From the IMG/VR virus record IMGVR_UViG_2778260947_000001, positions 1 to 28,771 of that record: a stretch of DNA of 28,771 nt. One strand, given 5' to 3'. The notes below the pieces were generated by a model. That model was not told where the DNA came from, made no database searches, and worked only from the letters and a program-made list of their open reading frames with translations. Made by a program: the position numbers and the translations under genes. This DNA comes from a virus. Of this stretch, positions 8,646 to 28,771 are shown piece by piece (positions within the stretch are counted from its first letter, which is position 1; every line of letters starts with the position of its first letter).

Positions 8646-10436
8646 ATGAGTACACAGGAGAAGCGTCACTTCACCAAGCACGTCGCCATCAAGGCGATCG
8701 ACGAGGAGGAGCAGACCGCCACCGGGATCGTCTTGACGCCCTACGAGCTGGACCATCAACTCGACTTCGTCTACCCGGACGGAGTCGGGGCGATGTACAA
8801 CCCTGATCCAGACGATGGCGTCCTCCACGCTCGGTTCCCCGACGATGCGGCGGAGCTCGAGTTCAACGAGGTCCTCGCCGAGGATCAGGAGATCGACGGC
8901 GTGCAGTTCGAAGCCGGCGACTGGGTCGTACGGCGCAAGTATCACGATGACGAACTGTGGTCGTTCGTCGGCGAGGTCCTTCACGGGTTCTCCATCGGTG
9001 GCGACGTCACCGAGGCCGACGAGTTCGACTCGATCGACGATCTCCCGGACGAGGTCGAGATCCCGGACAGCGTCGACCCGGACTCGGTTCCGGACAAGTA
9101 CTGGCCGCCGGCGGGGATCCGTAACGGGGCCACGACGGAGATCTCCGACGTCGACATCCCGGCGGTGACGTCGGCGGTCTACGCCACAAAGTCGGCCGGC
9201 GGCTCCCTCGAGAAGAACCTCTACGAGAACGCCGATGATCGCGAGGACTTCGTCGAGACGATGTCGAATCGCGGTGCTCCCGAAGACACCGCGGGCGAAC
9301 TCTGGGACTACCTGGAGCAGCTGGAGAAGACGGCTCCCGACGGCGCCGTCGCGAAGTTCTTCGCTGACGCCGAGAAGGCGGAGGAGATCATCGACCAAGA
9401 GAGTCAGCAACCAGACATGGAAGACAGCAACCCACCCGACGACGAGCCCGACGACGCCACGAAGTGGCGGCGGTTCAAGTCGTGGCTGAAAGGGTCGGAC
9501 TCCGATGTCGCCGATGCCGATGACGGCGTAAGTCCCGCGGACGGGCAGTCCGAGGTCTCGGCGGGGACGTTCTCGAAGGCGATCGACGTCGCCCGGGACG
9601 TCTCGAAGGAGGGCCGCACCCTCAACGCCCAGAACCGCGAGGCGTTGATGGCAGCCCACGACGCGATCGAGGCGGCGCTCGAGTCGGAACTCGACTTCGA
9701 GGGGAACCGATTTACAGACGACGACAAGACGGACTTCGACATCGCTCAGTTCGGCGGCTCCAGCGAGGGCGGCGACGATGGCGATGGCACTGAGAAGTCT
9801 CGACCGACCGAGAAGCTCACCGAAGAGCAGGGCGAGCTCGTCCTCGGCGCACTCCAGCGATTCGTGGACAACCAGGGCGAAGCGCCCTTCTCCGACTTCC
9901 GGTCCTGGGTCTGGTCGACAGACATCCTCGACGACGATACGGCGTTCGCGGCCGACGAGGCCGCACACCAGTACCGCGAGTGGGTCCGCGAGCAGCGCGA
10001 TCAGACTCCGGTCACCGAGGACTTCCTCGACTGGGTCCAGAGCGAGAGCGACACCGACACCGAGATCACCATGAGCAAGGATACCGACAACGACACGGAG
10101 AGCGAGGACGAGAAGAGCCTCGCCGAACAGAACGCAGAGGCGATCGACGAACTGACGGACACCGTCAAGGACCTCACCGACGAGATCTCCGACGGCGGAG
10201 AAGGCGACTCGGAGAAGTCCGCCGGCGGCGACGGCGGCGAAGAGGAGGGTGAGGCAGACGAGAAGTCCCAGGCTGAGAAGAACGCCGAAGCGATCAACGA
10301 ACTCGCCCAGTCGGTCAAGAGCCTGGCGGAGGCATCTGGCCACAGCCAGCAGCTGGACTACGACGGCGAGACCGAGAAGGACGCCGACGGCGAGCCCGAC
10401 GAGGGCGAAGTCAAGAAGGCGTTCCTCGGTCTGTAA
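8646..10436 (+). CDS. Prohead protease (XkdF-like) fused to an acidic scaffold region
   Basis: N-terminal KAIDEEEQTATGIVL..P...D and GDWV...GFSIGG resemble XkdF-type proteases. Acidic C-terminus carries two coiled-coil repeats (EKSLAEQNAEAIDEL / EKSQAEKNAEAINEL). Directly precedes the MCP gene. Confidence 0.8.
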   Translation: MSTQEKRHFTKHVAIKAIDEEEQTATGIVLTPYELDHQLDFVYPDGVGAMYNPDPDDGVLHARFPDDAAELEFNEVLAEDQEIDGVQFEAGDWVVRRKYHDDELWSFVGEVLHGFSIGGDVTEADEFDSIDDLPDEVEIPDSVDPDSVPDKYWPPAGIRNGATTEISDVDIPAVTSAVYATKSAGGSLEKNLYENADDREDFVETMSNRGAPEDTAGELWDYLEQLEKTAPDGAVAKFFADAEKAEEIIDQESQQPDMEDSNPPDDEPDDATKWRRFKSWLKGSDSDVADADDGVSPADGQSEVSAGTFSKAIDVARDVSKEGRTLNAQNREALMAAHDAIEAALESELDFEGNRFTDDDKTDFDIAQFGGSSEGGDDGDGTEKSRPTEKLTEEQGELVLGALQRFVDNQGEAPFSDFRSWVWSTDILDDDTAFAADEAAHQYREWVREQRDQTPVTEDFLDWVQSESDTDTEITMSKDTDNDTESEDEKSLAEQNAEAIDELTDTVKDLTDEISDGGEGDSEKSAGGDGGEEEGEADEKSQAEKNAEAINELAQSVKSLAEASGHSQQLDYDGETEKDADGEPDEGEVKKAFLGL

Positions 10437-15973: not shown

Positions 15974-16375
15974 ATGAGCGATGAAATCGACATCCAAGAG
16001 CTTGAGGAACAGGACTGGGACGTCAGCGACGACGACCCCCGCGAAGAGATCGAGTACGAGTTTCTGAACGGAAACACGAAGCGGTTCCTCGTCCAGGACC
16101 CTGACACGAACAACCTGCTCGACATCGTCGCGGTCGAGCCGGGGGAGGACGGGGATATCGCGGAGAACCTCTACGAGATCGTCAGCGCCGCGGTGGTCGC
16201 CCCCGAGATAACGCTGGAGCGGTGGCAGGAGGTGCGCCCCGCAGACCGGATCGGCCTTGCCGACGAGGTGGCTGAGGTCATCGGTCTAAACAAGCTGCTG
16301 GGGTTTACCGACGCTGGGCTCGAAGCCCAGCTGGACGACTCACAGTTAGAATCGCTCGAGAGTGGGGCCTCCTGA
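15974..16375 (+). CDS. Tail assembly chaperone (gpG-like)
   Basis: 133 aa acidic protein between tube and tape measure genes. Confidence 0.8.
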   Translation: MSDEIDIQELEEQDWDVSDDDPREEIEYEFLNGNTKRFLVQDPDTNNLLDIVAVEPGEDGDIAENLYEIVSAAVVAPEITLERWQEVRPADRIGLADEVAEVIGLNKLLGFTDAGLEAQLDDSQLESLESGAS

Positions 16376-16524
16376 TCGAAGAGGTCGACGCCTGGCCCTG
16401 GGAGAAGAAGCTGTTCTACGGCATCTGTCTCGCAGAATCCAACCCGGATCAGAGCGACGCCCGCGAGTTCGACATCGACGACTTCGCCGACATGGACGGA
16501 GTTCCGGACAAGTACCGCCCATAG
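16300..16524 (+). CDS. -1 frame extension of the tail chaperone (gpT-like part of a gpGT fusion)
   Basis: Frame open from 16276 to TAG 16522-16524 with no early ATG/GTG. Encodes ...RIAREWGLLIEEVDAWPWEKKLFYGICLAE...KYRP with host-like codon usage. Confidence 0.7.
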   Translation, partial: GVYRRWARSPAGRLTVRIAREWGLLIEEVDAWPWEKKLFYGICLAESNPDQSDAREFDIDDFADMDGVPDKYRP

Positions 16525-16555
16525 CAAGATCACTTCCACCATGGTTGGCTCGGTG

Positions 16556-16561
16556 TTTTAA
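16556..16561 (+). promoter_or_regulatory. Putative TATA box for the HNH gene
   Basis: TTTTAA about 30 nt upstream of ATG 16591, consistent with a near-leaderless haloarchaeal transcript. Confidence 0.4.
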
Positions 16562-16590
16562 CCTAGGAAACGTGACTGTTGGATAACGCG

Positions 16591-17427
16591 ATGCGATCCG
16601 AAGGAGATCACAAGTGTCCGGAATGTGGTGAGGTATTCGGGAACCACCAATCCATGAGTAGTCATCATGCTGCTCTCCACGGCGGACCGCCATTCACGAG
16701 TGAATGTAGTGCAAAATACTGCAATGTGGAGTACTCAACCCCTCCTTCCCAGGATCAAAAGAATATCAAATACTGTTCACAAGAGTGTCGAGTATCTGGA
16801 CCATGGCGAGACGAACAGATGATGGAATTACTCTATATATTGAGAGACATGTCCGCTTCTGAGATCGGAGACTATCTTGGTTGCTCAGGGCAGACGGTTT
16901 GGCGATGGCTGAAAAAGCACGGTATCGAGACTCGAGGGGTGAATGAGGCGAAGTACACGCGTCTCAGCTCAAAGGATTGGTTGGTGGAAACTTACGTCGA
17001 GAAAAATATGACCTCTGGAGAGATAGCAGAGTGGATTGGATGCCCAAGCAGTCTCGTGTGGGAGTGGTGCCAAAAGCATGGCATCGACTGCGAGGAGAAC
17101 GGATCTTGGCCACGTGGCGAAGATCACCACCTGTACAAGGATGGTGATAACAACTACGGTAAAGGTTGGGATGTGGAGAAAAAAGAACGAGTCAGAGAAA
17201 GAGATGGTCGTGAATGCCAGCACTGTGGCCGTGATGAACAAGAGCACATCAAGCTCTTCGGGACGAAACACGTCGTCCACCACATAGACCCAGCCAGATC
17301 CGTCGCCGATCCTGAAGAGCGAAACGCGATGAAAAACTTGGTTACACTCTGCCGAGGCGACTGTCATCAAAGCTGGGAGAAAATGGCCCCACTCCGACCC
17401 GACACTACCACATTTACTACCACCTAA
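16591..17427 (+). CDS. Free-standing HNH homing-type endonuclease with C2H2 zinc finger and HTH repeats
   Basis: CPECGEVF...SHHAALH (C2H2), CSQEC, two ASEIGDYLGCS/SGEIAEWIGCP HTH repeats, and C-terminal CQHC...VVHHIDP...NLVTLCRGDCH. GC is lower than in the flanks. Confidence 0.88.
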   Translation: MRSEGDHKCPECGEVFGNHQSMSSHHAALHGGPPFTSECSAKYCNVEYSTPPSQDQKNIKYCSQECRVSGPWRDEQMMELLYILRDMSASEIGDYLGCSGQTVWRWLKKHGIETRGVNEAKYTRLSSKDWLVETYVEKNMTSGEIAEWIGCPSSLVWEWCQKHGIDCEENGSWPRGEDHHLYKDGDNNYGKGWDVEKKERVRERDGRECQHCGRDEQEHIKLFGTKHVVHHIDPARSVADPEERNAMKNLVTLCRGDCHQSWEKMAPLRPDTTTFTTT

Positions 17428-17460
17428 GTCTGACTCAGTAGCACTGATATTCGGCGAGGA

Positions 17461-17634
17461 TCACTCAATAGGGCGCTCGAAAATAAGTGATACAGTCGTC
17501 CCACCTGAATCGATTCTATCGACCAGCTGCCATCCTTCTTTGGCTTGTTGATTGAGTTGTTTTCCGACACTTTCGGCAGACGGTAGAGACTCGATGTCAA
17601 CAACGCGGTACTCGTATCGACGATCCTGTGGCAT
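17461..17634 (-). CDS. DUF4177-like small protein
   Basis: MPQDRRYEYRVVD...QLNQQAKEGWQLV matches the DUF4177 pattern YEYKVV...LN..G.EGWELV; start reassigned to ATG 17634. Confidence 0.8.
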   Translation of the reverse strand: MPQDRRYEYRVVDIESLPSAESVGKQLNQQAKEGWQLVDRIDSGGTTVSLIFERPIE

Positions 17635-17659
17635 AGCCCACAGTTGACCGCAATACAAA

Positions 17660-17665
17660 ATAAAA
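17660..17665 (-). promoter_or_regulatory. Putative TATA box for the leaderless DUF4177-like transcript
   Basis: TTTTAT on the minus strand 26-31 nt upstream of the ATG, in an AT-rich gap. Confidence 0.5.
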
Positions 17666-17681
17666 CATACTGACAAAAACG

Positions 17682-20471
17682 ATGTTAGGAGGAGGTGGAC
17701 ACCGGACGATCGCGACAGTCCTCACCGCTCGCGACGATGCGACAAGTAAACTTAACCGCGTTGAGCGCGCCGGCGACGACGTCGCTGAATCGGCGTCCGA
17801 GGCAGAGCAACGTATCGAAGGACTGAGTACTGCGTTCGCTGCAACTGGCACAGCGACCGCAGTACTTGGGGGGTCGGTCGCTCTACTCACGCAGCGGTTC
17901 AGTCGGTTAGGAAAAACGTTCCAGACGATTCAGACGACATCCGGCGCGACTGCTGAAGAGATGCAACAGATCCGGGGTGCAGCGAAAGACATCAGCTCAA
18001 CGCTCCCAGTCACGCTTTCTGAATCCGCTCAGGCGATGAGATCACTTTCGTTCGCTGGGCTCAGCGCATCGGAGTCGATCTCTGCAATTCGAGAGACAAG
18101 TGAGCTTGCTGTCGCGGCACAGATGCAGACCTCCCAAGCCGCTGATATCGTGGCTCAGTCGATGAACGCGTTCAACCTCGAGGCTGAGCAGGCTGACGCC
18201 ATCGTCGGCTCGCTCGGGAGCACATTTAGTAACTCGACGACGCGGGTTCGAGAACTAGCACAGGCACTCACCGAAGTTCAGTCAACGGCCGCCTCTGCCG
18301 GTCTTTCCGTCGCCGGTACGGTCGGTGCTTTGGGGACGCTGGCCGACAACGGTATCCAAGCCTCGAAGGCAGGAACGTCTCTGAACGCAGTACTCTCCCG
18401 TTTGGCTGGGAACAGCAGTCAGACACAGAAAGCCCTCGAAGAGTTGGGGCTCTCGACGAGCGACTTCACGAACGAGGCCGGCGAGCTTCAAGACATCACA
18501 ACCATCGTCGGAACGTTGTCCGAACGAATGGAAGATGCGTCTCAGGCTGAACAGATCCGGCTCGCCCAACAAATCGGTGGGCGTGAGGGTGCTCGGGCGC
18601 TACTCCCACTCATACGACAGACTGACAAACTGGAACAGAAGGTTCGTGACAACCTTCGTGCGGAAATCCAGGGTGCGATTGGCGATCTCGCGGAGATGGG
18701 TGATGAGGAACTCGAGACGACGTCACAAGCCCTTGGAATGGAAGTATCTGGGGAAACGAGTACGCAGGAGCTGGTATCAAATCTCCAGGCCTTGGACAGC
18801 CAGGGCGAATCGACTGAAGAGATTGTTTCCCGGCTTCAGGTCGGGTTGGGGCTCACTGGTCAGGCTGCTGAAGAACTCGCGACAGAAATCACTGAGACAA
18901 ACAAATCTGCCGAGGAGATCGCCGACGCAATCGGCGGTGTGATGACGGCGGCGGAACTTGCCGAGGATCAGACAAAAACGCTCTCTGGTCAGATTGAGCA
19001 ACTCCGATCGTCGTTTCAGGTACTCGGGTACGAAATGTACCAAGGTACCAAACCAGCAGTATCAGCAGTAGTTGGGGGGTTACAAAGCCTGGCAACGCCA
19101 CTCAGTCAGAATACCGCAGTTGCGCGGGCACTTGGCGTCGGATTGATTGGGTTGACAGGAGCTGCCGCCGTTGCGACCGGCGCCCTTGGAGCTCTTATCG
19201 TCAACCTAAAAATCGCACAATTACAGACAAGTGTATTAACTCAACAGACAGCCACGTATAATGCACTAACCCGGGCATCTACTGCAGCCACGCTGGCGAA
19301 GAACAAAGCCCTCTGGCTCGCAACAGCGTCGACGGGGCAACTTGCTGCAGCTACGAGGGCGAAGACAGCTGCAATGTGGACGTCGATCACTGGCTTGTAT
19401 TCCTCAGCGACGGCCGCTCTTGCTGACGCGAGTGCGAAAGGTGTTGCTACAGCAGCGACAGGAGCTCTCGCAACCGGATTCGTAACGCTACAGGCCGCGA
19501 TGGGGCCTATCGGCTGGCTTTTGTTGGGTATCGCCGGTGCCGCAGTTGCTTTGGCCGCGATCTGGAAAGGAGATCTATTCGGTGCTGGTGAAGAAGCAGG
19601 CAACCTACTGGGGTGGTTCGGAGATAAAGCTGGTACGGCTTGGAATGTTACCAAGCAACTGACAGGAATATTATTCGAGCTCGCACGGATCGGCGCGACG
19701 ATCGCGGGACTCTCACTCATCGCACCGTTCGCCGCGGTGCTGAAGCTCCCGGACCTCATCTCCAGCGTCGGGCCGAAGGTCAAGAAGGCGGCAATGAGCC
19801 TCCCGGGGAAGATCGCGGATGGACTCGCGAGTCTCGGTCCCGCGAAGTACGCACTGCCCGTACTGGGGCCGTTGCTGCTCGCGAAGGACATGATCACAGA
19901 TCCGAGCAAGTGGCTCGACGCCGGGAAGCAGATCCCGGGGATGATCGCGAACGGCATCAAGAGCGCCGCATCGAAGCCCGTCGACGCGGTCACCAACGTG
20001 GCGTCGGGGATCCGCGACCGGCTCCCGTTCTCCCCGGCTGAGAAGGGACCGCTCCAGTCGCTCGGAGAAACCGGGCCGGGACTGATCCAGACGATCGCCG
20101 GCGGCGTCGAGTCGGAGGCACCGACGCTCGTCTCATCGATCAGCAACGTGCTGGGGCAGACCCCGCTGGGACAGGCGGCCGGAGCCGCGGGCGGCCTTCT
20201 CGGGAAGACACCGCTCGGGCAGGCCGCCGGCGCGGCCGCTGACGCGATCGGTGGCTCCGGTGAAGGCGGTGATTCTGGTGGTCCGGGCGGTGGGTCGGGA
20301 GAGGGGATGCCGCGGCTCGAGATCACGATCAACCAAGACATCGACGTCGACGGCGGTGACGCAACCGAGGCAGACGTCGCCACGGCCGCGAGTGATGGCG
20401 CATCGGAGGCGATCAGCGGTGACGCGCTCGACGCGTTCTTCCAGCAGCTCGCTCGGGAGGTGAACAACTAA
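17682..20471 (+). CDS. Tail tape measure protein
   Basis: 929 aa, Ala/Gly/Ser-rich helical protein with a TP901-like core (FQTIQTTSGATAEEMQQIR...; GIQASKAGTSLNAVL), hydrophobic middle and a standard TMP position. Confidence 0.93.
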   Translation: MLGGGGHRTIATVLTARDDATSKLNRVERAGDDVAESASEAEQRIEGLSTAFAATGTATAVLGGSVALLTQRFSRLGKTFQTIQTTSGATAEEMQQIRGAAKDISSTLPVTLSESAQAMRSLSFAGLSASESISAIRETSELAVAAQMQTSQAADIVAQSMNAFNLEAEQADAIVGSLGSTFSNSTTRVRELAQALTEVQSTAASAGLSVAGTVGALGTLADNGIQASKAGTSLNAVLSRLAGNSSQTQKALEELGLSTSDFTNEAGELQDITTIVGTLSERMEDASQAEQIRLAQQIGGREGARALLPLIRQTDKLEQKVRDNLRAEIQGAIGDLAEMGDEELETTSQALGMEVSGETSTQELVSNLQALDSQGESTEEIVSRLQVGLGLTGQAAEELATEITETNKSAEEIADAIGGVMTAAELAEDQTKTLSGQIEQLRSSFQVLGYEMYQGTKPAVSAVVGGLQSLATPLSQNTAVARALGVGLIGLTGAAAVATGALGALIVNLKIAQLQTSVLTQQTATYNALTRASTAATLAKNKALWLATASTGQLAAATRAKTAAMWTSITGLYSSATAALADASAKGVATAATGALATGFVTLQAAMGPIGWLLLGIAGAAVALAAIWKGDLFGAGEEAGNLLGWFGDKAGTAWNVTKQLTGILFELARIGATIAGLSLIAPFAAVLKLPDLISSVGPKVKKAAMSLPGKIADGLASLGPAKYALPVLGPLLLAKDMITDPSKWLDAGKQIPGMIANGIKSAASKPVDAVTNVASGIRDRLPFSPAEKGPLQSLGETGPGLIQTIAGGVESEAPTLVSSISNVLGQTPLGQAAGAAGGLLGKTPLGQAAGAAADAIGGSGEGGDSGGPGGGSGEGMPRLEITINQDIDVDGGDATEADVATAASDGASEAISGDALDAFFQQLAREVNN

Positions 20472-21339: not shown

Positions 21340-22188
21340 ATGACCGTCTGGCAACAGCACCGGAGTGTCGACGCCGGGGAGGTCTCGCTCGACGGCCTCG
21401 ACCTGGACATTCGCGTCAACAAACCGAAGGACGATCCGCTCGAGTTCGAGGTGACGACGTGGAACCTGACGTCGGATACCTGGGGCCGTATCGAAGATGG
21501 CGACCTCTGCCGAATCGAACTCGGCTGGGCGGACGGCAACATCGAAACGGTGTGCCTCGGGAAGATCGACACGAGAAAACGTTCGGCGGGGACGTCGGAT
21601 ATCGAGTACACGCTTGGCGGCGTCGACGAGACCGAGGCCGCGACGAAGGTCAGCCCCGACAGCTCCTGGTCGCAGAAGACGTGGGTCGATAAGCGTCCCG
21701 ACCAGATCGTCGAGGCGCTCGCAAGCGAGATCGGGCTCTCGGCGCAGACGGAGTCCGCCGGCGACCCGATCAAAGGGTCGTGGTCGGTCACGCCAGACAA
21801 AACGGTGACCGGCTGGCTGGATGACCTCGTCCAAATCGCCGCGGAGAACACGGGCGTCGAGTGGGAGTGGTTCGCGGTTCGCGGCCAGATCTTCTTTCTC
21901 CCACGCTCGGAGGAGGCCCAGGAGGCTCCCCAGCTGAGTTACGAAGGGATGTTGGTCTCGATCGGCGAGAAGTCGGACACGAACGACGACGTCGAGGGGC
22001 AGCTCGAGTTCGAAGCGATGTGCGAGCCTCGCATCTCGAAAGGGGCTGCTGTCTACGTCGAGACGGAAGACTACAGCGGGCCGTACCGCGTGAGCGACTA
22101 CGAGTTCCGCTCCTCAACGCAGTCCGGCGACCATCTCGTCCGTGGGACGCTGACGCCGGTCGAGGCGGACTATTCTATCGAGAGCTGA
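21340..22188 (+). CDS. Baseplate hub protein
   Basis: 282 aa; NLTSDT..RI, IELGWADG and FEAMCEPRISKGAAVYV patterns; precedes the spike gene. Confidence 0.75.
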   Translation: MTVWQQHRSVDAGEVSLDGLDLDIRVNKPKDDPLEFEVTTWNLTSDTWGRIEDGDLCRIELGWADGNIETVCLGKIDTRKRSAGTSDIEYTLGGVDETEAATKVSPDSSWSQKTWVDKRPDQIVEALASEIGLSAQTESAGDPIKGSWSVTPDKTVTGWLDDLVQIAAENTGVEWEWFAVRGQIFFLPRSEEAQEAPQLSYEGMLVSIGEKSDTNDDVEGQLEFEAMCEPRISKGAAVYVETEDYSGPYRVSDYEFRSSTQSGDHLVRGTLTPVEADYSIES

Positions 22189-22190
22189 TC

Positions 22191-22337
22191 ATGAACGCCT
22201 GGGATCAATCGACGAGACCGTGTCCGAGTACCGACTGCGACGGGACGGCCGTCGCGAAGACCAACCAGTGGGGGGAGATCACCCACTACGAGTGCCGCGA
22301 GTGTGCTCAGGAAATCGATGCGGGAGATGGCCGATGA
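22191..22337 (+). CDS. Small CxxC zinc-ribbon protein (48 aa)
   Basis: ATG at 22191; CPSTDC and CREC motifs; ATGA overlap with the spike gene. Confidence 0.65.
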   Translation: MNAWDQSTRPCPSTDCDGTAVAKTNQWGEITHYECRECAQEIDAGDGR

Positions 22338-22879
22338 CGGGGAACGTCGATACGTTCAAGCAGGCCGTCCGCTCGGAGATCCGGGGCATCTACACCATCA
22401 CCTTCGTCCGCATCGAGGAGATCGACGAGGAGACGCGCCGGGCGGTCGTCTCACTGAAGAGCGACTCGGACATCCTCATCGACAACGTCCCCGTCGCGTC
22501 GCCGTTTGCACGCGACGGCGCCGGGATGATCACGCCGGTCGAGAGCGGTGACGAGGGCCTGGTGATGCACGCCCAAGAGCCCCTCGCGAAGCAGATCCAG
22601 CAGCGCGGCGAACAACCTTCCGAGAGTGACCGGCGGTTCCAGCTCGAGGACGCCGTGCTGCTGCCGTTGCTCTGGCTCGACGAGGACACCATCCCGGAAC
22701 ACGGGGCGAACGAGTTCGTGGTCGATCTCGGCGAGGGTGCGCCAACGATGCGACTGAACGGGGAAACTGGTGGCTTCCAGCTCGTCGACGGGAGCGGTCA
22801 CGGGATCGTCTCCGACGGCGAGGGGAACTTCACTTGGCACGCTCAGTCGGTCGACGTCAAGGAGGGGCCGATCAACTGA
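22334..22879 (+). CDS. Baseplate central spike, OB-fold (gpV/Gp138-like)
   Basis: Start reassigned to ATG 22334; IDNVPV...PVESGDEGLV motif; 181 aa. Confidence 0.75.
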   Translation: MTGNVDTFKQAVRSEIRGIYTITFVRIEEIDEETRRAVVSLKSDSDILIDNVPVASPFARDGAGMITPVESGDEGLVMHAQEPLAKQIQQRGEQPSESDRRFQLEDAVLLPLLWLDEDTIPEHGANEFVVDLGEGAPTMRLNGETGGFQLVDGSGHGIVSDGEGNFTWHAQSVDVKEGPIN

Positions 22880-23037
22880 TGTCTCCCGACCGCTACATCG
22901 ACATCGGGTTTGGGTTTTTCCAGGGCGGCTTCGTTATCGCAGTCCTGACCGGCGCGAGCCGCCTCGCCATCAGCCTTCTCGCCCTCGCCACGGTAATCGG
23001 CGTCATCGGAATCCGTCGAGGAGGGTCTGGTTCATGA
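22879..23037 (+). CDS. Small membrane protein (52 aa)
   Basis: Almost entirely hydrophobic with two likely TM segments and a C-terminal RR; overlaps both neighbours. Confidence 0.6.
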   Translation: MSPDRYIDIGFGFFQGGFVIAVLTGASRLAISLLALATVIGVIGIRRGGSGS

Positions 23038-23399
23038 CCGTCCCTGCAGTAATCGGCGCTCCGACCGAGGCCAACGGCCACCCGTCGGCGTGTTCCGAGC
23101 CGGCGACGGGAAGCGTCGAGTCGACAGATGACGCACCACTCTCGATCGAGGGTGCCGATGTCGCGACGCACGCGGCCGCGGTGATGCACTTCCCGTCGCA
23201 CGGCCACGCAACGGATCCGATGGGGAACTGCATCGACTACCAAACCCACGACCTGACGCCCGACCAGGACCACCTCCTGACGGTCAACGGAGAGCCGGTG
23301 ATGTGCGTCGACGACTCGACGACAGATCCTGGGTCTGGCGGGACGGCAACGATCACCGACCACGGTGGGAACGAGATACTGACGGTGACCGAATCGTGA
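23034..23399 (+). CDS. PAAR-like spike tip protein
   Basis: Start at ATG 23034; 121 aa, His/Cys-rich; LTVNGEPV..VDD..TDPGSGG resembles PAAR repeats. Confidence 0.65.
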   Translation: MTVPAVIGAPTEANGHPSACSEPATGSVESTDDAPLSIEGADVATHAAAVMHFPSHGHATDPMGNCIDYQTHDLTPDQDHLLTVNGEPVMCVDDSTTDPGSGGTATITDHGGNEILTVTES

Positions 23400-23406
23400 T
23401 AGACCG

Positions 23407-23769
23407 ATGAAATACAATCGTACACTCGCGCTCGAGGAGGACGGCAGCTACCGCGTCGAGAACGGAGAGCTCGTCTGGATCGACGGCGCGGCAGCTGTCG
23501 AACAGGAACTGAAGACGACGCTCGCGACCGTCCGCGGTGAGGATCCGTTCGACGAGGACCACGGTCTCCGTGTGTTCGAGGCGGCTGGCTCGGCACCGCC
23601 GATCCTCGAGCGAGAGATCCGGGATGCGCTCCTGGAGGACGATCGCGTCGAGGCGGTTGATGAGATCGTGATCACGGATCCGGACGCAAACCGTCGGGTT
23701 GACGTCGCGATTTCGGTGACGCTCGTTGACGGCACGGGACTCGACTTCGAGACGGAGGTCACAGTCTAA
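23407..23769 (+). CDS. Baseplate wedge protein (gp25/gpW-like)
   Basis: 120 aa; AVEQELKTTL...GEDPFDEDHG...IRDALLEDDRV signature. Confidence 0.85.
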   Translation: MKYNRTLALEEDGSYRVENGELVWIDGAAAVEQELKTTLATVRGEDPFDEDHGLRVFEAAGSAPPILEREIRDALLEDDRVEAVDEIVITDPDANRRVDVAISVTLVDGTGLDFETEVTV

Positions 23770-23772
23770 ACC

Positions 23773-25473
23773 ATGAGCAACAACTACGGTATCCAGGACG
23801 ACGGCTCGTTCCGTCGCAAGCACATCGACGATATCCGAGGGGACCAGAAGCAGCACTTTAAAAACGAGGTTGGAGAAGACATCGAACTCCGCCAGGCGTC
23901 TCCCCAGATGCAGGCGCTCGACATGAACGCCCTCGAGCTGGCGCGGCTGTGGGAGGTCGCCGAGTCGATTTACTACGCCTCCTACTACGAGGACAGTTTC
24001 GGGGAGCAACTCGATAAGCAGCTCGCGCTGGCGGGCTTCTCACGGATCCCGGCACGGAGTGCGACCGGCGAGGTCGTGTTTTTGAGAGACTCGCCAGCAC
24101 CGGAGGACATCACCATCCCCTCGGGGACTATGGTGACGACGCAGCGAACGGAAACGAAACCACGGATCCCGTTCGAGACGACTGAAGGAGTCGTCCTCAG
24201 CGCGGGGAACTCCGAAGCCACCGCGCCGATCGAGGCGCTCAAACCCTGGCAGACAGAGCTCGATGAGGAGTGGCTCGGTGCCGAGACGAACGTCGCAGCG
24301 CACACGATCGAGCGCTTCGAAGACCTGGTCGCCGACGTCGACGACGTCACGAACCCCAATCCCACGGGCGACGAGTCGCTCGGCTATGTCGAGGGGAGGG
24401 ATCGCGAGACTGATGCTGAGTTCAAACTGCGGTATCAGAACAGCCTCGCTGATGGCGGGGCAGCGACGCTCCGCGCCGTCCGGTCGGGCGTGTTCAACGC
24501 TGACGACGAGATCAAGTCCGTCGGTGTCGACGAGGTCCGCGACCCGGACCAGGGGTACGGCGTCCAGGTGACGGTGCTGGCACCCGACGTTTCCGACGAA
24601 GTCGTCGCCCAGGCGATCGTTGACTCACGGGCTGGCGGCCTCGAATCGTTCGGCTCTGAGTCTGGCATCGGGACGCTCGAGGACGGGACAGAGAAGACAG
24701 AGTCCTTCAACCGAGCCGATGAGGTGACGATCCTGCTCGTCGCCGATCTGACGACGTCCGATACGTTCCCGTCGGATGGCTCGACTCAGATCACTGACCG
24801 GATCATCCGTTACATCGGTGGCACGGCGTCGGATAACATCGGCTACCCCGGCCTCGAAATCGGTGAGGACGTCATCTACGACCAGCTGTTCCGGCGCGTG
24901 ATGGAAACCCAGGGGACAGTCATGGCCGACCTCTGGATCGGAACCGACGATCCCGACACGGCCCAGACGACCGATGCCGACGATGCCACTGTGTCGGATT
25001 CGTCGGCCCGTGGTGTTCGATTCGAGGCCACGGCGGATGCCGATGACGTGCTGGTCGAGGCCCGGCTGTCAGCCAACGTCGCAGATGCAACCCAAGCACG
25101 ACTGCTCGACAGTAACGGAAACGTTCTGACCAGTACGGACATCTCCGATGTCGCTGCCGGTGAGTGGTTCCGGTTCGACGGCGTCCTCTCGTGGACCTCC
25201 GGTGAGGCGTTCGACATCGCTGTCGACGCTGAGGGGGCCAGCTACACGATCGGGCAGGACGCTGACCCGACGTATCCGTACGATGGAGCGGCCGCTGGCG
25301 TCGACATCACCCAACGGTACCGGGGGGATCTGGATCCAGATGGGTCCCCTCAGGCCACGCGCCCGAACGTCGACGGTGTCCGGCTCAACCAGGTCGGTGA
25401 GAGTAACATTTCAATCACAGACACCCAGGCCGCGATGACCGGGATATCGGAGGTAACGGTCAATGTTGAATGA
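23773..25473 (+). CDS. Baseplate J-like protein with a C-terminal domain insertion
   Basis: LDKQLALAGFSR..ARSATGEVVF, GRDRETDAEFKLR and GGAATLRAV are baseplate J motifs; 566 aa. Confidence 0.9.
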   Translation: MSNNYGIQDDGSFRRKHIDDIRGDQKQHFKNEVGEDIELRQASPQMQALDMNALELARLWEVAESIYYASYYEDSFGEQLDKQLALAGFSRIPARSATGEVVFLRDSPAPEDITIPSGTMVTTQRTETKPRIPFETTEGVVLSAGNSEATAPIEALKPWQTELDEEWLGAETNVAAHTIERFEDLVADVDDVTNPNPTGDESLGYVEGRDRETDAEFKLRYQNSLADGGAATLRAVRSGVFNADDEIKSVGVDEVRDPDQGYGVQVTVLAPDVSDEVVAQAIVDSRAGGLESFGSESGIGTLEDGTEKTESFNRADEVTILLVADLTTSDTFPSDGSTQITDRIIRYIGGTASDNIGYPGLEIGEDVIYDQLFRRVMETQGTVMADLWIGTDDPDTAQTTDADDATVSDSSARGVRFEATADADDVLVEARLSANVADATQARLLDSNGNVLTSTDISDVAAGEWFRFDGVLSWTSGEAFDIAVDAEGASYTIGQDADPTYPYDGAAAGVDITQRYRGDLDPDGSPQATRPNVDGVRLNQVGESNISITDTQAAMTGISEVTVNVE

Positions 25474-26074
25474 GCAACCCGCCCGTGAGCGCCTGGAAGC
25501 GTCGCTGAAGACGCCGTATCCTGCAGACGGTGAGATCTGGTCCGCCCTCATCACCGCGTTCGCCAACGAGTACGACGAACTCGAACAGGTGTTCGCGGAC
25601 ATCCTGGCGGCGAAGTTCGTGACCTCAGCAACCGGCGAGCAGCTCGACCGGCTGGCGACGATCTTCGACCTCGAGCGCCGGACAGACGAACCCGACTCGG
25701 TGTTCAGGATTCGCGCCCAGACGGCGCTGCGGTCACAGCTCTCCAGCGGGACGATCGACGAGATCCGCGAGACGATTGCGGTGCTCTTGGACGCAGAGAT
25801 CGACGACGTCGTCGTAGACGAACCAACCGATATCGAGCCAGCGCGGGTTGACATCGGCGTCTGGGAAGAGCAGTTGAACGATCGTAACTTGACGACGGAT
25901 GAGTTCTTCCAGGAGGCTGAACCGCTCACCGCAGCCGGCGTCGACGTCCAGGGCTACGCCCGCGGGACGTTCGAGTACGCGGCTGCTGGTGATGATCCGA
26001 CGGACGCCGATCGCGGATACGGGACGCTCACTGACGATAGTGTCGGCGGGACGTACGGCTCGCTGCTGAAGTGA
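25463..26074 (+). CDS. Baseplate wedge / fibre attachment protein (gpI-like)
   Basis: GGAGGT SD 8 nt upstream; ATGEQLDRLATIFDLER...EPDSVFRIR motif. Confidence 0.8.
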   Translation: MLNEQPARERLEASLKTPYPADGEIWSALITAFANEYDELEQVFADILAAKFVTSATGEQLDRLATIFDLERRTDEPDSVFRIRAQTALRSQLSSGTIDEIRETIAVLLDAEIDDVVVDEPTDIEPARVDIGVWEEQLNDRNLTTDEFFQEAEPLTAAGVDVQGYARGTFEYAAAGDDPTDADRGYGTLTDDSVGGTYGSLLK

Positions 26075-26091
26075 CACCAGATTACTGAGAC

Positions 26092-27669
26092 ATGGATAGA
26101 CAATCACGCATTTGGGGAGACAGTGGTACAGAACCCGCTGCCGGCGAGGAGACGTACGCCGGCGGTGAGAAACCCATCGCCGAGCACGACAACTGGGCGA
26201 TGTGGGCAATCACGAAGGATATCGATACGCTCGCGTCGATCGTTGGGACGCTCGAAGGCGTCTCGTCGGTAACGGAGCTCCGATACGAGACGCTCGCCGA
26301 CCGACCGGCGGCTGGGACGCCCGGGCGCGTCTCGTTCGCATACGACGAGCAGATCGTCGCCGTCGACGACGGGAACCAGTGGATCGACCTGGGCGTCAAG
26401 TCCCACGATGATCTCGCCGACATCGCAAGCGACGATCATCACGCGCGGTACACCGACGCCGAGGCCCAGAGCGCTGTCGTAGGATCCGTCGATGCGGCAT
26501 CTCTCACTGGCTCCTCTGGATCCAGTGGGCAGGTCCTCGAAACCGACGGGGATGCCCTCTCGTGGAGCGACATCAGCACGCGGACCGACGAAGAGATCGA
26601 GGACGTCGTCGCCTCGCTCGTACAGGCAGGCGATAAACTCTCGTGGACGTACGATGGCCAGAACGGAACGCTGACCGTCGACACGAGTGCGCTCAACGAC
26701 GAAGAAGTCGAAGATAAGGTCTCCACACTCGTCAACGCCGGCACCGGTGTAAGCGTCACCTACGACGACCAGAACGGCGCGCTGACGGTCGAAGTGCCGG
26801 AAGGCGCGATTAGTAGCACCGAACTGAACTTTGACCCCGCGACCAGCGGCGGTGTCGATGCGGTCGATACGGCACTGTCCGACCACAAGGGAGACGAGAC
26901 GAATCCCCACAACGTCAACGACGATCAGACCGGGGCTGCAGATGCACGAACCGACCTTCGGTTCGCGCTGTACCCCGAGGAAGTCGATGCGTCGACGCGA
27001 GACACCTACTACCAGAACTTCTCGAAGTTCGCGAACTCCGCAGCGATGACCAGCATCGCCGCCTCGTCGGTCGTGATGGACGAGGTCAGCGAGTCCAACA
27101 CGGCGATGGACGCGGCCAGCGCATCCGATACCGCGATGGACGCGGTGTCGACGTCCCCCACGGCGATGGACGCGGTGTCGACGTCTATCATGGCCCGAAC
27201 TGCAATACTTCACTCATCGCACGTTCGAGGCAGCGTCTGGACGGAGACAATTGGTGCTGAGAAGCTCTGGGAAGCAGGAGAACCGACACCACCGGCGTCA
27301 TATCTCGGCGGAGAGGACATCGATGCCGAGATGATCCAGGACCGGAGCGAAAGTGCGTACCAACTCCGCGTCGAGCTCTACAATTCGACCAGTGGTGGTC
27401 TGTACACCTACGACCTCGCGATCGACTGGGACGAGGCGTCGACGCTCAGGATCTACACGGCTGCGGATAACATAAGTGCGAGCGGATATATGACGGTTCA
27501 AATCGGCGGAAGTGAAGTCTTTAGCACCAACTCTAACCACGGATGGACCGAAAGATCGATCGACGCCTCAGGCTACAGCGGTGAGCAGGATCTGCAAATG
27601 GGGTTCTGGCTCGATTCAGCGACTGGAATAACTCGAACAACCGAATTCGCGGAAATTCAGCTGGAGTGA
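26092..27669 (+). CDS. Tail fibre protein with MDAV repeats and a variable C-terminal tip
   Basis: 525 aa. Contains HHARYTDAEA, a 37-aa tandem duplication (DEEIEDVVASLV...LTV / DEEVEDKVSTLV...LTV), four 10-aa xMDxVSxSxT repeats and a C-terminal beta-rich domain. Confidence 0.88.
   Translation: MDRQSRIWGDSGTEPAAGEETYAGGEKPIAEHDNWAMWAITKDIDTLASIVGTLEGVSSVTELRYETLADRPAAGTPGRVSFAYDEQIVAVDDGNQWIDLGVKSHDDLADIASDDHHARYTDAEAQSAVVGSVDAASLTGSSGSSGQVLETDGDALSWSDISTRTDEEIEDVVASLVQAGDKLSWTYDGQNGTLTVDTSALNDEEVEDKVSTLVNAGTGVSVTYDDQNGALTVEVPEGAISSTELNFDPATSGGVDAVDTALSDHKGDETNPHNVNDDQTGAADARTDLRFALYPEEVDASTRDTYYQNFSKFANSAAMTSIAASSVVMDEVSESNTAMDAASASDTAMDAVSTSPTAMDAVSTSIMARTAILHSSHVRGSVWTETIGAEKLWEAGEPTPPASYLGGEDIDAEMIQDRSESAYQLRVELYNSTSGGLYTYDLAIDWDEASTLRIYTAADNISASGYMTVQIGGSEVFSTNSNHGWTERSIDASGYSGEQDLQMGFWLDSATGITRTTEFAEIQLE
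27073..27192 (+). repeat. Four tandem 30-bp (10 aa) repeats in the fibre gene
   Basis: VMDEVSESNT/AMDAASASDT/AMDAVSTSPT/AMDAVSTSIM; GCGATGGACGCGGTGTCGACGTC is identical at 27133-27155 and 27163-27185. Confidence 0.92.
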
Positions 27670-27672
27670 CTC

Positions 27673-27954
27673 ATGATCAGTGCAATCTTCAAATCCGACA
27701 GCAGCGGTACCGACCGAATGGTTGGCTACGCTCGAGGCGAGTATTCAAGCAGCGACAGCCAGGAGAAGATCGTAGAAACGACCGAAGACGACCTGGCCGA
27801 GGTCTTCGACGCGACATCAGTCGACACTCTCGACGGCATCGACGAGTCGATCAGTGCCGCGGTCGATGGCCCCCTCACGTACCATGACTTTCTCGTGCTT
27901 GATGACGGGGAGATATCCTTCGACGCCGAGTATGTTCGCGAGAATCAAGAGTGA
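27673..27954 (+). CDS. Hypothetical protein, possible tail fibre assembly chaperone
   Basis: 93 aa acidic ORF directly after the fibre gene; function inferred from position only. Confidence 0.6.
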   Translation: MISAIFKSDSSGTDRMVGYARGEYSSSDSQEKIVETTEDDLAEVFDATSVDTLDGIDESISAAVDGPLTYHDFLVLDDGEISFDAEYVRENQE

Positions 27955-28340
27955 TCTCATCGAGGTCGAGAGTGATCTCCCAGTATTTGGTTCCGGTGTT
28001 GCTGTTCCCCGGAGAATTGAATGTCAGTGAGCTATGCGTGCTCCCTGGTGTATCTCCGGTGTCCTCGTACAGCTCGGCGTTCGAGCCCAACCACTCGTGT
28101 GGTGGCGACGGGAACCCTGTAGACCACATCTTTTCCGTCGGCATCTGTGACTCCCAGATCTCGTCGACGACGTACGCACTCGCGAGAAGAGTGGTCCGCG
28201 CGAGGATGGGTGCCGACACCGTGTCCATCGCGACCTGCGTACTCACGACCTTATCGAGCGCGATATCTTCCGAGGCGATCACCGCATCCATCGCGACGTC
28301 GGATGCGCTGACCGTATCCACGATGACCTGGGAGACATCT
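27955..28340 (-). pseudogene. Inverted, start-less and 3'-truncated alternative tail fibre tip cassette
   Basis: Minus frame MDTVSAPILARTTLLASAYVVDEIWESQMPTEKMWSTGFPSPPHEWLG aligns with fibre MDAVSTSIMARTAILHSSHVRGSVWTETIGAEKLWEAGEPTPPASYLG and is preceded by MDAV-type repeats. Confidence 0.85.
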
Positions 28341-28384
28341 CTTTTCGAGAGGTAGAGGCGCTGAAACAACAGTTCGAGAAATCC

Positions 28385-28771
28385 ATGTACGAGTACAAAG
28401 CTCACTGCGTGAACGTCATCGACGGCGACACGATCGACGTGGTCGTCGATCTCGGGTTCCATATCCAGCGGGAGATCCGGCTCCGACTGCAGGGTGTGGA
28501 CACCCACGAGACGTACGGCGTCAGTCACGATTCCGAGGAGTATCGCCGCGGGGAGCGCGAAACAGCGTACGTCCAGGACTGGCTCCCCAGCATCGATGGA
28601 GAGACGGCCGACGGCGCAGGGGGGGAGTGGCCGATCACCGTCCGCACCGAGAAGAAGGGGAAGTACGGTCGCTACCTCGCAGAGGTCGAGCGCCGACACG
28701 ACGGCGCCGTGTTGAACGAGGGCCTCCGCGAGACGTTCGACGGCGTCGACACGACGGAGGGGGAGAGCTGA
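28385..28771 (+). CDS. Thermonuclease (staphylococcal nuclease-like) family protein
   Basis: VIDGDT, RLRLQGVDTHE and KYGRYLA carry the SNase catalytic Asp/Arg/Asp/Glu/Arg positions; no signal peptide seen. Confidence 0.88.
   Translation: MYEYKAHCVNVIDGDTIDVVVDLGFHIQREIRLRLQGVDTHETYGVSHDSEEYRRGERETAYVQDWLPSIDGETADGAGGEWPITVRTEKKGKYGRYLAEVERRHDGAVLNEGLRETFDGVDTTEGES

Follow-up and report, generated by a model that had tools for sequence, protein, structure and literature searches.

The window considered here (the entire stretch of DNA that was analyzed, 28,771 nt, IMGVR_UViG_2778260947_000001) is the structural arm of a phiH1-like myohalovirus; its parent record is a provirus rated 49% complete, and the record ends 431 bp past the right-hand repeat cluster described below. 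A tail-fibre locus lies at the end of this arm, after the baseplate genes, and is followed by a YncB-like endonuclease, just as the endonuclease PhiH1_190 comes after the invertible module of phiH1 (PMC6210493; MK002701). Its flanks are marked on the left by the baseplate J protein (23773..25473, plus strand; Pfam PF04865, E 5.8e-14; 68% identity to phiH1 Bpj) and on the right by the YncB-like (staphylococcal-nuclease-type) endonuclease (28385..28771, plus strand; 76% identity to PhiH1_190, E 9e-68; phrog_452 endonuclease, E 9.5e-32), whose stop codon forms the last bases of the record. Nucleotide identity to phiH1 is 79% in the baseplate-to-fibre region, and collinear matches run at 82-87% over 26584-27146 and at 80% over 28270-28749. 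The similarity breaks inside both repeat clusters, that is, exactly at the borders of the annotated invertible segment of phiH1; by this homology, an invertible segment would start near 27103 and end near 28349. (Some technical notes: the endonuclease, queried against genome contigs, returned distant bacterial matches only; Pfam gave no match for the fibre, the small gene, the silent tip or the endonuclease; the promoter and terminator scans used bacterial-type models and are uninformative for this locus. Halobacterium salinarum plasmid pKBTZ03_443 has the baseplate region in common with the window, and its fibre genes are different.)

The expressed tail-fibre gene (26092..27669, plus strand; 525 aa), identified as an open reading frame and by homology, is made up of a constant part, a repeat cluster and a tip, here called tip A (27199..27669, plus strand). 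It matches phrog_18723 and the tail-fibre family phrog_7809, and in tblastn it matches the phiH1 fibre (72% over aa 164-383) and, more weakly, those of phiCh1 and ChaoS9; the whole fibre as a query against viral contigs found nothing. The last ~118 residues of tip A are predicted to fold as a nine-strand beta-sandwich (AF2 pLDDT 80-93 over residues 52-169). Foldseek matches the model to CBMs at E about 3e-4 with target TM up to 0.55, so that the predicted sandwich appears to resemble carbohydrate-binding modules; a C-terminal domain of sugar-binding type has been reported for the phiCh1 fibre (PMC4284463), and the one predicted here would be a further point of likeness. An earlier note on this DNA had remarked that codon usage becomes less GC3-rich after the repeats, and so it does: GC3 stands at 0.76 for the constant part, rises to 0.91 across the repeats and drops to 0.62 for the expressed tip (the 93-aa gene that follows has 0.70).

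The repeats flank the region that was probably once invertible. The left cluster (27068..27198, plus strand) consists of four in-frame 30-bp AMDAV units (VVMDEVSES / TAMDAASAS / TAMDAVSTS / TAMDAVSTS), with direct 30-bp repeats detected at 27072-27175; the right cluster (28193..28340, minus strand) holds about 3-4 units, one of them 33 nt long, is more degenerate than the left and is coupled to no start codon. Both borders, in other words, carry in-frame direct repeats of ~30 bp that are mutually inverted, as the borders of such modules do, though in reduced form. The inverted matches between them extend over 41 nt at 83% (27107-27147 / 28280-28320), 38 nt at 76% (27163-27200 / 28194-28231) and 19 nt at 95% (27132-27150 / 28214-28232); a recount of 27117-27147 against the reverse complement of 28280-28310 returned exactly the 27/31 identities previously counted. 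Inverted pairs as long as 27 nt, 81% identical, turn up by chance at other places in the same 4.8 kb, so that the inverted DNA match by itself constitutes modest evidence. Exact cores common to both clusters include CAGCGCATCCGA (12 nt) and GCGATGGA. The first of these is the longest exact inverted match, to be compared with 29-84 nt in the three int1-bearing viruses (53 nt in phiH1); the best inverted 30-mer is 26/30 here as against 29-30/30 in phiH1, phiCh1 and ChaoS9, and the recognizable units number 4 + 3, where the reference viruses have 8-22 per cluster (22 + 8 in phiH1). Homologous recombination was considered as a switching mechanism and is implausible because the longest exact inverted match is only 12 nt.

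Directly after tip A comes its small partner gene (27673..27954, plus strand; 93 aa; phrog_20505, E 1.4e-26), the sole open reading frame between the two cassettes, as the earlier note had said. What that note overlooked is that this is no stray gene: judged by its sequence, it is a conserved part of the module. Its product is a full-length homologue of PhiH1_170/180, PhiCh1_160/170 and ChaoS9_165/175, aligning end-to-end with the six small proteins of the three viruses at 41-51% identity with 18 invariant columns. The ~93-aa gene that accompanies every tip represents a conserved family; its fold is predicted with confidence, and no solved structure matches it clearly (best Foldseek E against the PDB, 0.3; in a wide VIA search, best Z 2.7 for a cyanophage Pam3 fibre and 2.5 for the Mu fibre-chaperone complex, both far below meaningful values). 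A profile of the small proteins recovered phiCh1 and ChaoS9 only; the small-protein query against metagenome contigs, and a search with an exact 24-mer from the 3' end of the gene, found nothing.

In phiH1, phiCh1 and ChaoS9 the order of genes is fibre, ~93-aa gene, int1 (675 bp), a second ~93-aa gene (inverted) and a second tip (inverted) (PMC6210493; PMC6471424). The phiH1 invertible segment spans nt 24,227-27,767 and comprises PhiH1_165, _170, int1 (PhiH1_175), _180 and _185 (PMC6210493; MK002701). The affiliation of this locus with the phiCh1/phiH1/ChaoS9 group, which had been proposed at the outset, is borne out: fibre, small gene and endonuclease each have a phiH1 homologue in syntenic position, the flanks correspond, the second tip likewise lacks a start codon of its own, and the endonuclease lies directly to the right. 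With phiCh1 the locus shares homologous tips (36-38% identity), small genes (49-51%) and 30-bp in-frame repeats, which in phiCh1 are the crossover sites. The differences are as plain: int1 and the second small gene are lacking, the second tip is ~75-80 residues short at its C-terminus, and the segment measures about 1.25 kb rather than the 3.54 kb of phiH1. Phase variation of phiCh1 at ORF34-int1(ORF35)-ORF36 is described, by Rossler et al. 2004 and Klein et al. 2012 as cited in PMC4284463, PMC6471424 and PMC8651126, as an experimentally shown inversion in which both fibre genes are complete; a complete fibre pair, an int1 and a demonstrated inversion are all features that set phiCh1 apart from the present locus.

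The silent tip, tip B (27956..28192, minus strand), is an open and coding-like stretch of 79 codons (GC3 0.72). The earlier note had called it a homologous but divergent fibre tip, a claim that a formal protein alignment upholds: tip A and tip B match in BLASTP at E 2e-22 with 37% identity over 131 aa, and both match phrog_18723 (E 1.3e-33 for tip A, 1.9e-16 for tip B). Going beyond the DNA match, this protein comparison is the decisive test of the cassette. The alignment also brings out a truncation that had been overlooked. Tip B ends at a conserved "DL.." column, and the final ~75-80 residues, the best-conserved stretch, which seven other tips possess, are missing from it; along the 452 positions of the phrog_18723 profile it covers 264-372 and tip A covers 255-450, and the missing part corresponds to six of the nine beta-strands in the AF2 model of tip A. 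The silent tip is, accordingly, not complete enough to replace the expressed one. Its closest relative is the ChaoS9 silent copy (42% identity); a near-identical expressed tip B was sought among longer proteins, and the six matches reached just 32-42% identity.

Where tip B stops, the small gene, running in the opposite sense, ends as well. At the inferred deletion junction (27947..27958) the last homologous codons of tip B (E-I-T-L, minus strand) share bases with the small-gene stop codon: from that stop (27954) to the place where tip B has its final codon (27956), no DNA is left unassigned. The minus-strand frame of tip B runs for 128 codons without a stop, and its read-through tail (27878..27955, minus strand; 26 codons, antisense to the small gene) has no tip homology. 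With a GC3 of 0.23 and a basic composition (7 K+R versus 3 D+E) in an otherwise acidic proteome, this tail is non-coding antisense noise. Tip B itself is still open and coding-like; hence either it decayed recently or some constraint acts on it.

Could the junction at 27955-27958 be an artefact of assembly, an intact int1 module having been collapsed? We regard this as very unlikely, while noting that the junction rests on one assembly, since no independent bridging contig was recovered. Four sequencing runs (Logan contigs, each with at most 0.20 of the sampled words) yielded no inversion joint and no contig bridging 27955-27958. A 175-nt contig from one of them (run X2) corresponds to 27783-27957 apart from one difference, its end falling precisely at the junction; and L021-L023, three related contigs of IMG/VR, are all broken within the repeat cluster, a region that evidently assembles badly. 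Against this, the junction lies outside the repeats, and the sole common sequence nearby is a 9-nt direct repeat, AGTGATCTC (27950-27958 and 27971-27979), far below assembler k-mer sizes; moreover, a collapse would not normally drop the unique int1 and yet keep the flanks in frame-consistent order. The end of the X2 contig may be due to chance because coverage is ~3x and patchy everywhere. Exact pieces from runs X1 and X2 are similarly patchy, and the four runs together support neither switching nor its absence.

The earlier note had also remarked on the lack of a recombinase between the cassettes, and this extends to the entire record, rated 49% complete: neither the tyrosine recombinase domain PF00589 (sought in six frames), to be expected of Int1, nor the serine recombinase domain PF00239, and with it a serine invertase of the Gin/Cin/Min type (Mu G, P1 C, p15B), is found in the 28.8 kb, and phiH1/phiCh1 Int1 has no tblastn match in the window. 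More was lost than an enzyme: the small gene occurs in a single copy (27673-27954), and tblastn finds neither a second small gene nor the C-terminus of the second tip anywhere in the window. The absence of the recombinase is explained if one deletion also took the second small gene and the end of tip B.

We consider it very probable that the locus is a once-invertible module of the Int1 type of myohaloviruses (Myohalovirus/Vertoviridae), locked by a deletion of ~1.24 kb. In the ancestor, the fibre with tip A would have been followed by a small gene and int1 and then, both inverted, by a second small gene and tip B, all between in-frame 30-bp repeat clusters; Int1 would have flipped the segment at the repeats, so that the fibre exchanged its receptor-binding end. 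Some 1.24 kb (in phiH1 coordinates) would then have been lost by illegitimate deletion, and with it int1, the partner gene of tip B and the last ~75-80 codons of tip B, which joined what was left of this tip to the stop codon of the one small gene still in place. The present virus would be left with one fibre (constant part and tip A) and one small partner protein, the inverted remnant surviving as a silent pseudogene fragment. Deletion, as opposed to never having had the missing parts, and the loss of switching are both inferred, and the polarity is argued from parsimony only. Of the alternatives offered earlier, "phase-locked and decayed" is the one favoured by the absence of int1 and the second small gene, the truncation of tip B and the short, divergent repeats; the headline claim of a working invertible system that dispenses with a recombinase is unsupported. 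With the flipping enzyme and the spare tip end deleted, this is most likely a locked relic, and not a new kind of switch.

Evidence that the segment inverted in the past comes, at the level of sequence, from uncultured relatives in which a diagnostic repeat unit has the flipped arrangement. This distinctive 21-aa double unit, IASEDIALDKVVSTQ, occurs in the window only in the silent cluster; in four metagenome relatives it belongs to the expressed fibre. A flipped join constructed from the window aligns with one of these relatives (P0002) gaplessly, at 78/91 identity, whereas the present arrangement requires a 21-aa gap, and for all four metagenomic fibres the flipped join is a better match than the existing join.

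These relatives also bear on the question of polarity. One might suppose that the arrangement is primitive or arose independently, as a tip partly duplicated in inverted orientation and never accompanied by int1, and that the phiH1-type module evolved from something like it. In one relative, L009, fibre, small gene and endonuclease occur with neither int1 nor a silent tip; non-invertible states therefore do occur in the group. The supposition is nevertheless most improbable: both flanks are 80-87% identical in nucleotide sequence to phiH1 right up to the annotated borders of its segment; the silent tip, at only 37% identity to tip A, is no recent duplicate; tip B ends in mid-domain, abutting the stop codon of another gene; and its repeat unit occurs in the expressed orientation in relatives.

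It is also conceivable that the segment still inverts in trans, driven by an Int2 or Int1 copy in the unsequenced right arm, by a co-resident phiH-like virus or by a host Xer. The fibre would then have two states, the second short and truncated, a phase that is "off" or altered in adsorption. Both sides retain inverted repeat units that belong to the right family and share the exact cores noted above, the frame of the tip B remnant is intact, and relatives resemble the flipped state. In phiH1, phiCh1 and ChaoS9, int2 resides in the half of the genome that is absent from this record (PMC6210493), and because the record covers about half of the genome, switching in trans retains some slight probability. 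We nonetheless think it unlikely. There is no recombinase in the 28.8 kb, the repeats are fewer and more divergent than in every int1-bearing relative, and the small gene cognate to tip B is gone. The flipped product would, by the structural model, lack six of the receptor-binding sandwich's nine strands and terminate in the 26-codon nonsense tail. Int2, for its part, is not known to act on the fibre repeats and has been tied to a different inversion (PMC6210493). A variant of this proposal is that the truncated cassette is alive, either because a recombinase acting in trans flips the 1.25-kb segment or because the remnant serves as a donor of repeats and tip for recombination with superinfecting relatives. 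That too is quite unlikely; if true, a cassette flipped in trans would toggle between full and tip-less fibres, making it an adsorption ON/OFF switch and not a host-range switch.

The G segment of phage Mu and the C segment of P1 are inverted by serine invertases, Gin and Cin, that are encoded outside the segment, and carry S-U and S'-U' pairs of fibre and chaperone. A constant fibre part, alternative tips and small partner genes within the flipped segment would be common to those systems and to the locked module, and a recombinase placed outside the segment is what the in-trans option of the first reading would resemble. The analogy has its bounds: the proteins are unrelated, and the window has no serine recombinase and only one complete pair of tip and partner.

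ChaoS9 provides another natural case of an inactivated silent tip: its silent fibre copy is interrupted by ISH12 and has been called "probably a pseudogene" (PMC6471424). Yet ChaoS9 keeps int1, both small genes and 84-nt perfect inverted repeats, its copy having been hit by a transposon and not by a deletion. The main value of the present analysis lies in a correction: what appeared to be a fibre switch without a recombinase is the well-described Int1 module of phiCh1 and phiH1 after loss of the recombinase. The module can be arranged in a series of decay, from intact (phiH1, phiCh1) through transposon-hit (ChaoS9) and deletion-locked (this window) to devoid of a silent cassette (L009), and this suggests that host-range switches of this type are readily lost in proviruses.

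The window, a whole IMG/VR record labelled 'provirus' (28,771 bp, rated 49% complete), covers a haloarchaeal myovirus's structural arm: genes that run in one direction specify terminase, portal, protease/capsid, sheath-like, tape-measure and baseplate J proteins. Among sequenced relatives, Halobacterium virus phiH1 is the nearest, with 79% nucleotide identity over 56% of 22000-28771. G+C content falls to 0.53-0.59 at 16001-20000, which covers the start of the tape-measure gene (17682-20471), compared with ~0.63-0.66 elsewhere. At the right end lie the fibre gene (525 aa; 26092-27669, plus strand), a small ORF (93 aa; 27673-27954, plus strand), on the minus strand an open frame with homology to the fibre tip (from about 28340 down to 27956) and an endonuclease gene (128 aa; 28385-28771, plus strand) whose stop codon closes on the final base of the record.

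In phiH1, phiCh1 and ChaoS9 the annotated order is fibre, ~93-aa gene and int1 (675 bp), followed on the opposite strand by another ~93-aa gene and a second tip; in phiH1 a YncB-like endonuclease comes directly after the module. Inversion at repeat clusters by Int1 exchanges the fibre 3' end (PMC6210493, PMC6471424, PMC4284463, PMC8651126). Nucleotide identity of the window to phiH1 is 82-87% at 26584-27146 and 80% at 28270-28749 (the endonuclease is 76% identical to PhiH1_190), and the similarity ends within both repeat clusters, that is, at the borders of phiH1's annotated invertible segment. The clusters consist of four in-frame 30-bp units in the fibre gene (..AMDAV..S.; 27068-27198) and their inverted recurrence at 28193-28340. 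The earlier note's inverted pair (27 of 31 positions identical) is exact; the best pairs between clusters are 41 nt at 83%, 38 nt at 76% and 19 nt at 95%. Because inverted pairs as long as 27 nt at 81% also arise by chance in other parts of this GC-rich DNA, it is protein comparison that decides homology of the tips: the formal alignment of the expressed tip (tip A) with the silent minus-strand tip (tip B) yields 37% identity over 131 residues (E 2e-22), and both match phrog_18723. The homologous but divergent cassette of the earlier note thus stands, and so does its shift of codon style after the repeats (GC3 is 0.76 for the constant part, 0.91 for the repeats and 0.62 for the tip).

What is missing? 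The segment is ~1.25 kb long, versus 3.54 kb in phiH1, on account of a ~1.24-kb missing stretch (phiH1 coordinates) and much shorter repeat clusters. With Int1, small protein and tips as queries, tblastn over the whole window detects no int1, no second tip C-terminus and a single copy of the small gene; six-frame profile searches of the window detect no tyrosine or serine recombinase. Both searches agree with the earlier statement that only the 93-aa gene, and no recombinase, separates the cassettes. The last homologous codons of tip B (minus strand, ...W-E-I-T-L-D-L-D-E-I-T-L) meet the small gene's stop codon at 27947-27958, with no space left for any other element. In an eight-tip alignment, tip B stops at a conserved column, without the best-conserved final ~75-80 residues (tip B spans 264-372 and tip A 255-450 of 452 profile positions). 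In the AF2 model, tip A is a nine-strand β-sandwich (pLDDT 80-93). Its matches to carbohydrate-binding modules are weak to moderate and agree with the report of a galactose-binding domain in phiCh1 fibres (PMC4284463); judged by this model, tip B keeps strands one to three only. Beyond tip B its frame runs on for 26 codons (GC3 0.23, basic), which are antisense to the small gene and non-coding. (The 9-nt sequence AGTGATCTC occurs as a direct repeat, 27950-27958 and 27971-27979, at and just inside the inferred deletion junction, so that the minus strand encodes E-I-T-L twice; the repeat may be left over from the rearrangement, or be chance.)

A recombinase acting in trans might still flip the segment: the record ends 431 bp beyond the right cluster, without the arm that carries int2 in relatives. 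The product would be a fibre lacking most of its receptor-binding domain, and we consider such switching unlikely. Misassembly of the junction is more doubtful still. Public runs, which offer only fragments in low-depth Logan contigs, contain 0 inversion joints and 0 contigs across the junction; a 175-nt contig from a brine metagenome (run X2; ~3x patchy cover) matches 27783-27957 apart from a single difference, and its end falls precisely on the junction; this may be chance, or it may mark the point where an undeleted variant branches off within that population.

All six small proteins of phiH1, phiCh1 and ChaoS9 align with the 93-aa ORF over its entire length (41-51% identity, 18 invariant columns); the ORF is therefore a regular component of the module rather than an unrelated gene. 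By sequence these proteins (phrog_20505) fall into two types: that of the window shares 'IF..RM.G' with PhiH1_170 and ChaoS9_175, and the others have 'LIFTPDDSGT.RA.GYATV'. A confident α/β fold is predicted (pLDDT 89.7 in two of five models), which no solved structure matches convincingly. From its strict pairing with each tip, and by comparison with Mu U/U', the protein may serve as a distal partner or as an assembly factor specific to its tip.

The repeats themselves are few (4 and about 3 units per cluster, versus 8-22 in the three int1-bearing viruses) and divergent: the longest exact inverted match is 12 nt and the best 30-mer 26/30, compared with 29 nt and 29/30 in phiCh1, 53 nt and 30/30 in phiH1, and 84 nt and 30/30 in ChaoS9. 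Such sequences are consistent with a locus no longer homogenised by reciprocal recombination; at these lengths, homologous recombination is also an unlikely switch. In three related IMG/VR contigs (L021 6940-7191, L022 8204-8366, L023 4933-5048), the counterpart of 26934-27185, which takes in the repeats and the ~130 nt just before them, is 88-93% identical in nucleotides to the window, and the fibre N-terminal parts only ~50% in protein, a pattern that resembles a mosaic boundary. Each of these contigs stops inside the repeat cluster, as expected if repeats or inversion break assemblies.

Was the segment ever inverted? A 21-aa double unit (IASEDIALDKVVSTQ; IASEDIALD(K/R)VV(S/N)TQ) is found in the window in the silent cluster only (28220-28279, minus strand), is absent from phiH1, phiCh1 and ChaoS9, and belongs to the expressed fibre in four proteins from metagenomes (P0002, P0004, P0005, P0006), in three of which it directly follows a constant block nearly identical to the window's. 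A scripted flipped join of the window's own halves aligns with P0002 gap-free (78/91 identical); the present arrangement requires a 21-residue gap. These alignments suggest, short of proof, that the window and these metagenome relatives differ by inversion at an AMDAV unit. In view of the phiH1-like flanks and the mid-domain truncation of tip B, a primitive locus that was never invertible is very improbable.

Switch loss is not unusual: ChaoS9-like proviruses without the invertible region have been described (PMC6471424), and IMG/VR contig L009 (8841-10378) has fibre, small gene and endonuclease without int1 or silent tip. (The L009 fibre frame shifts between repeats and tip, with ORFs at 8841-9374 and 8920-9636: a broken gene or an assembly error.) The 44-kb Halobacterium salinarum plasmid pKBTZ03_443 (NZ_CP146628.1), probably another phiH-like provirus, shares the baseplate region at 72% nucleotide identity; its fibre genes are different and are followed by two tyrosine recombinase genes.

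Between the options left by the earlier note, the missing parts and degenerate repeats favor a phase-locked, decayed locus and speak against a new recombinase-free mechanism: the locus belongs, in degenerate form, to a known system. Most probably the virus descends from an ancestor with a functional Int1 switch. A single illegitimate deletion would then have taken out int1, tip B's partner gene and the 3' third of tip B itself. The inverted remnant would be a pseudogene fragment so far free of stop codons, and the virus would now make a single fibre type, tip A with its partner protein.
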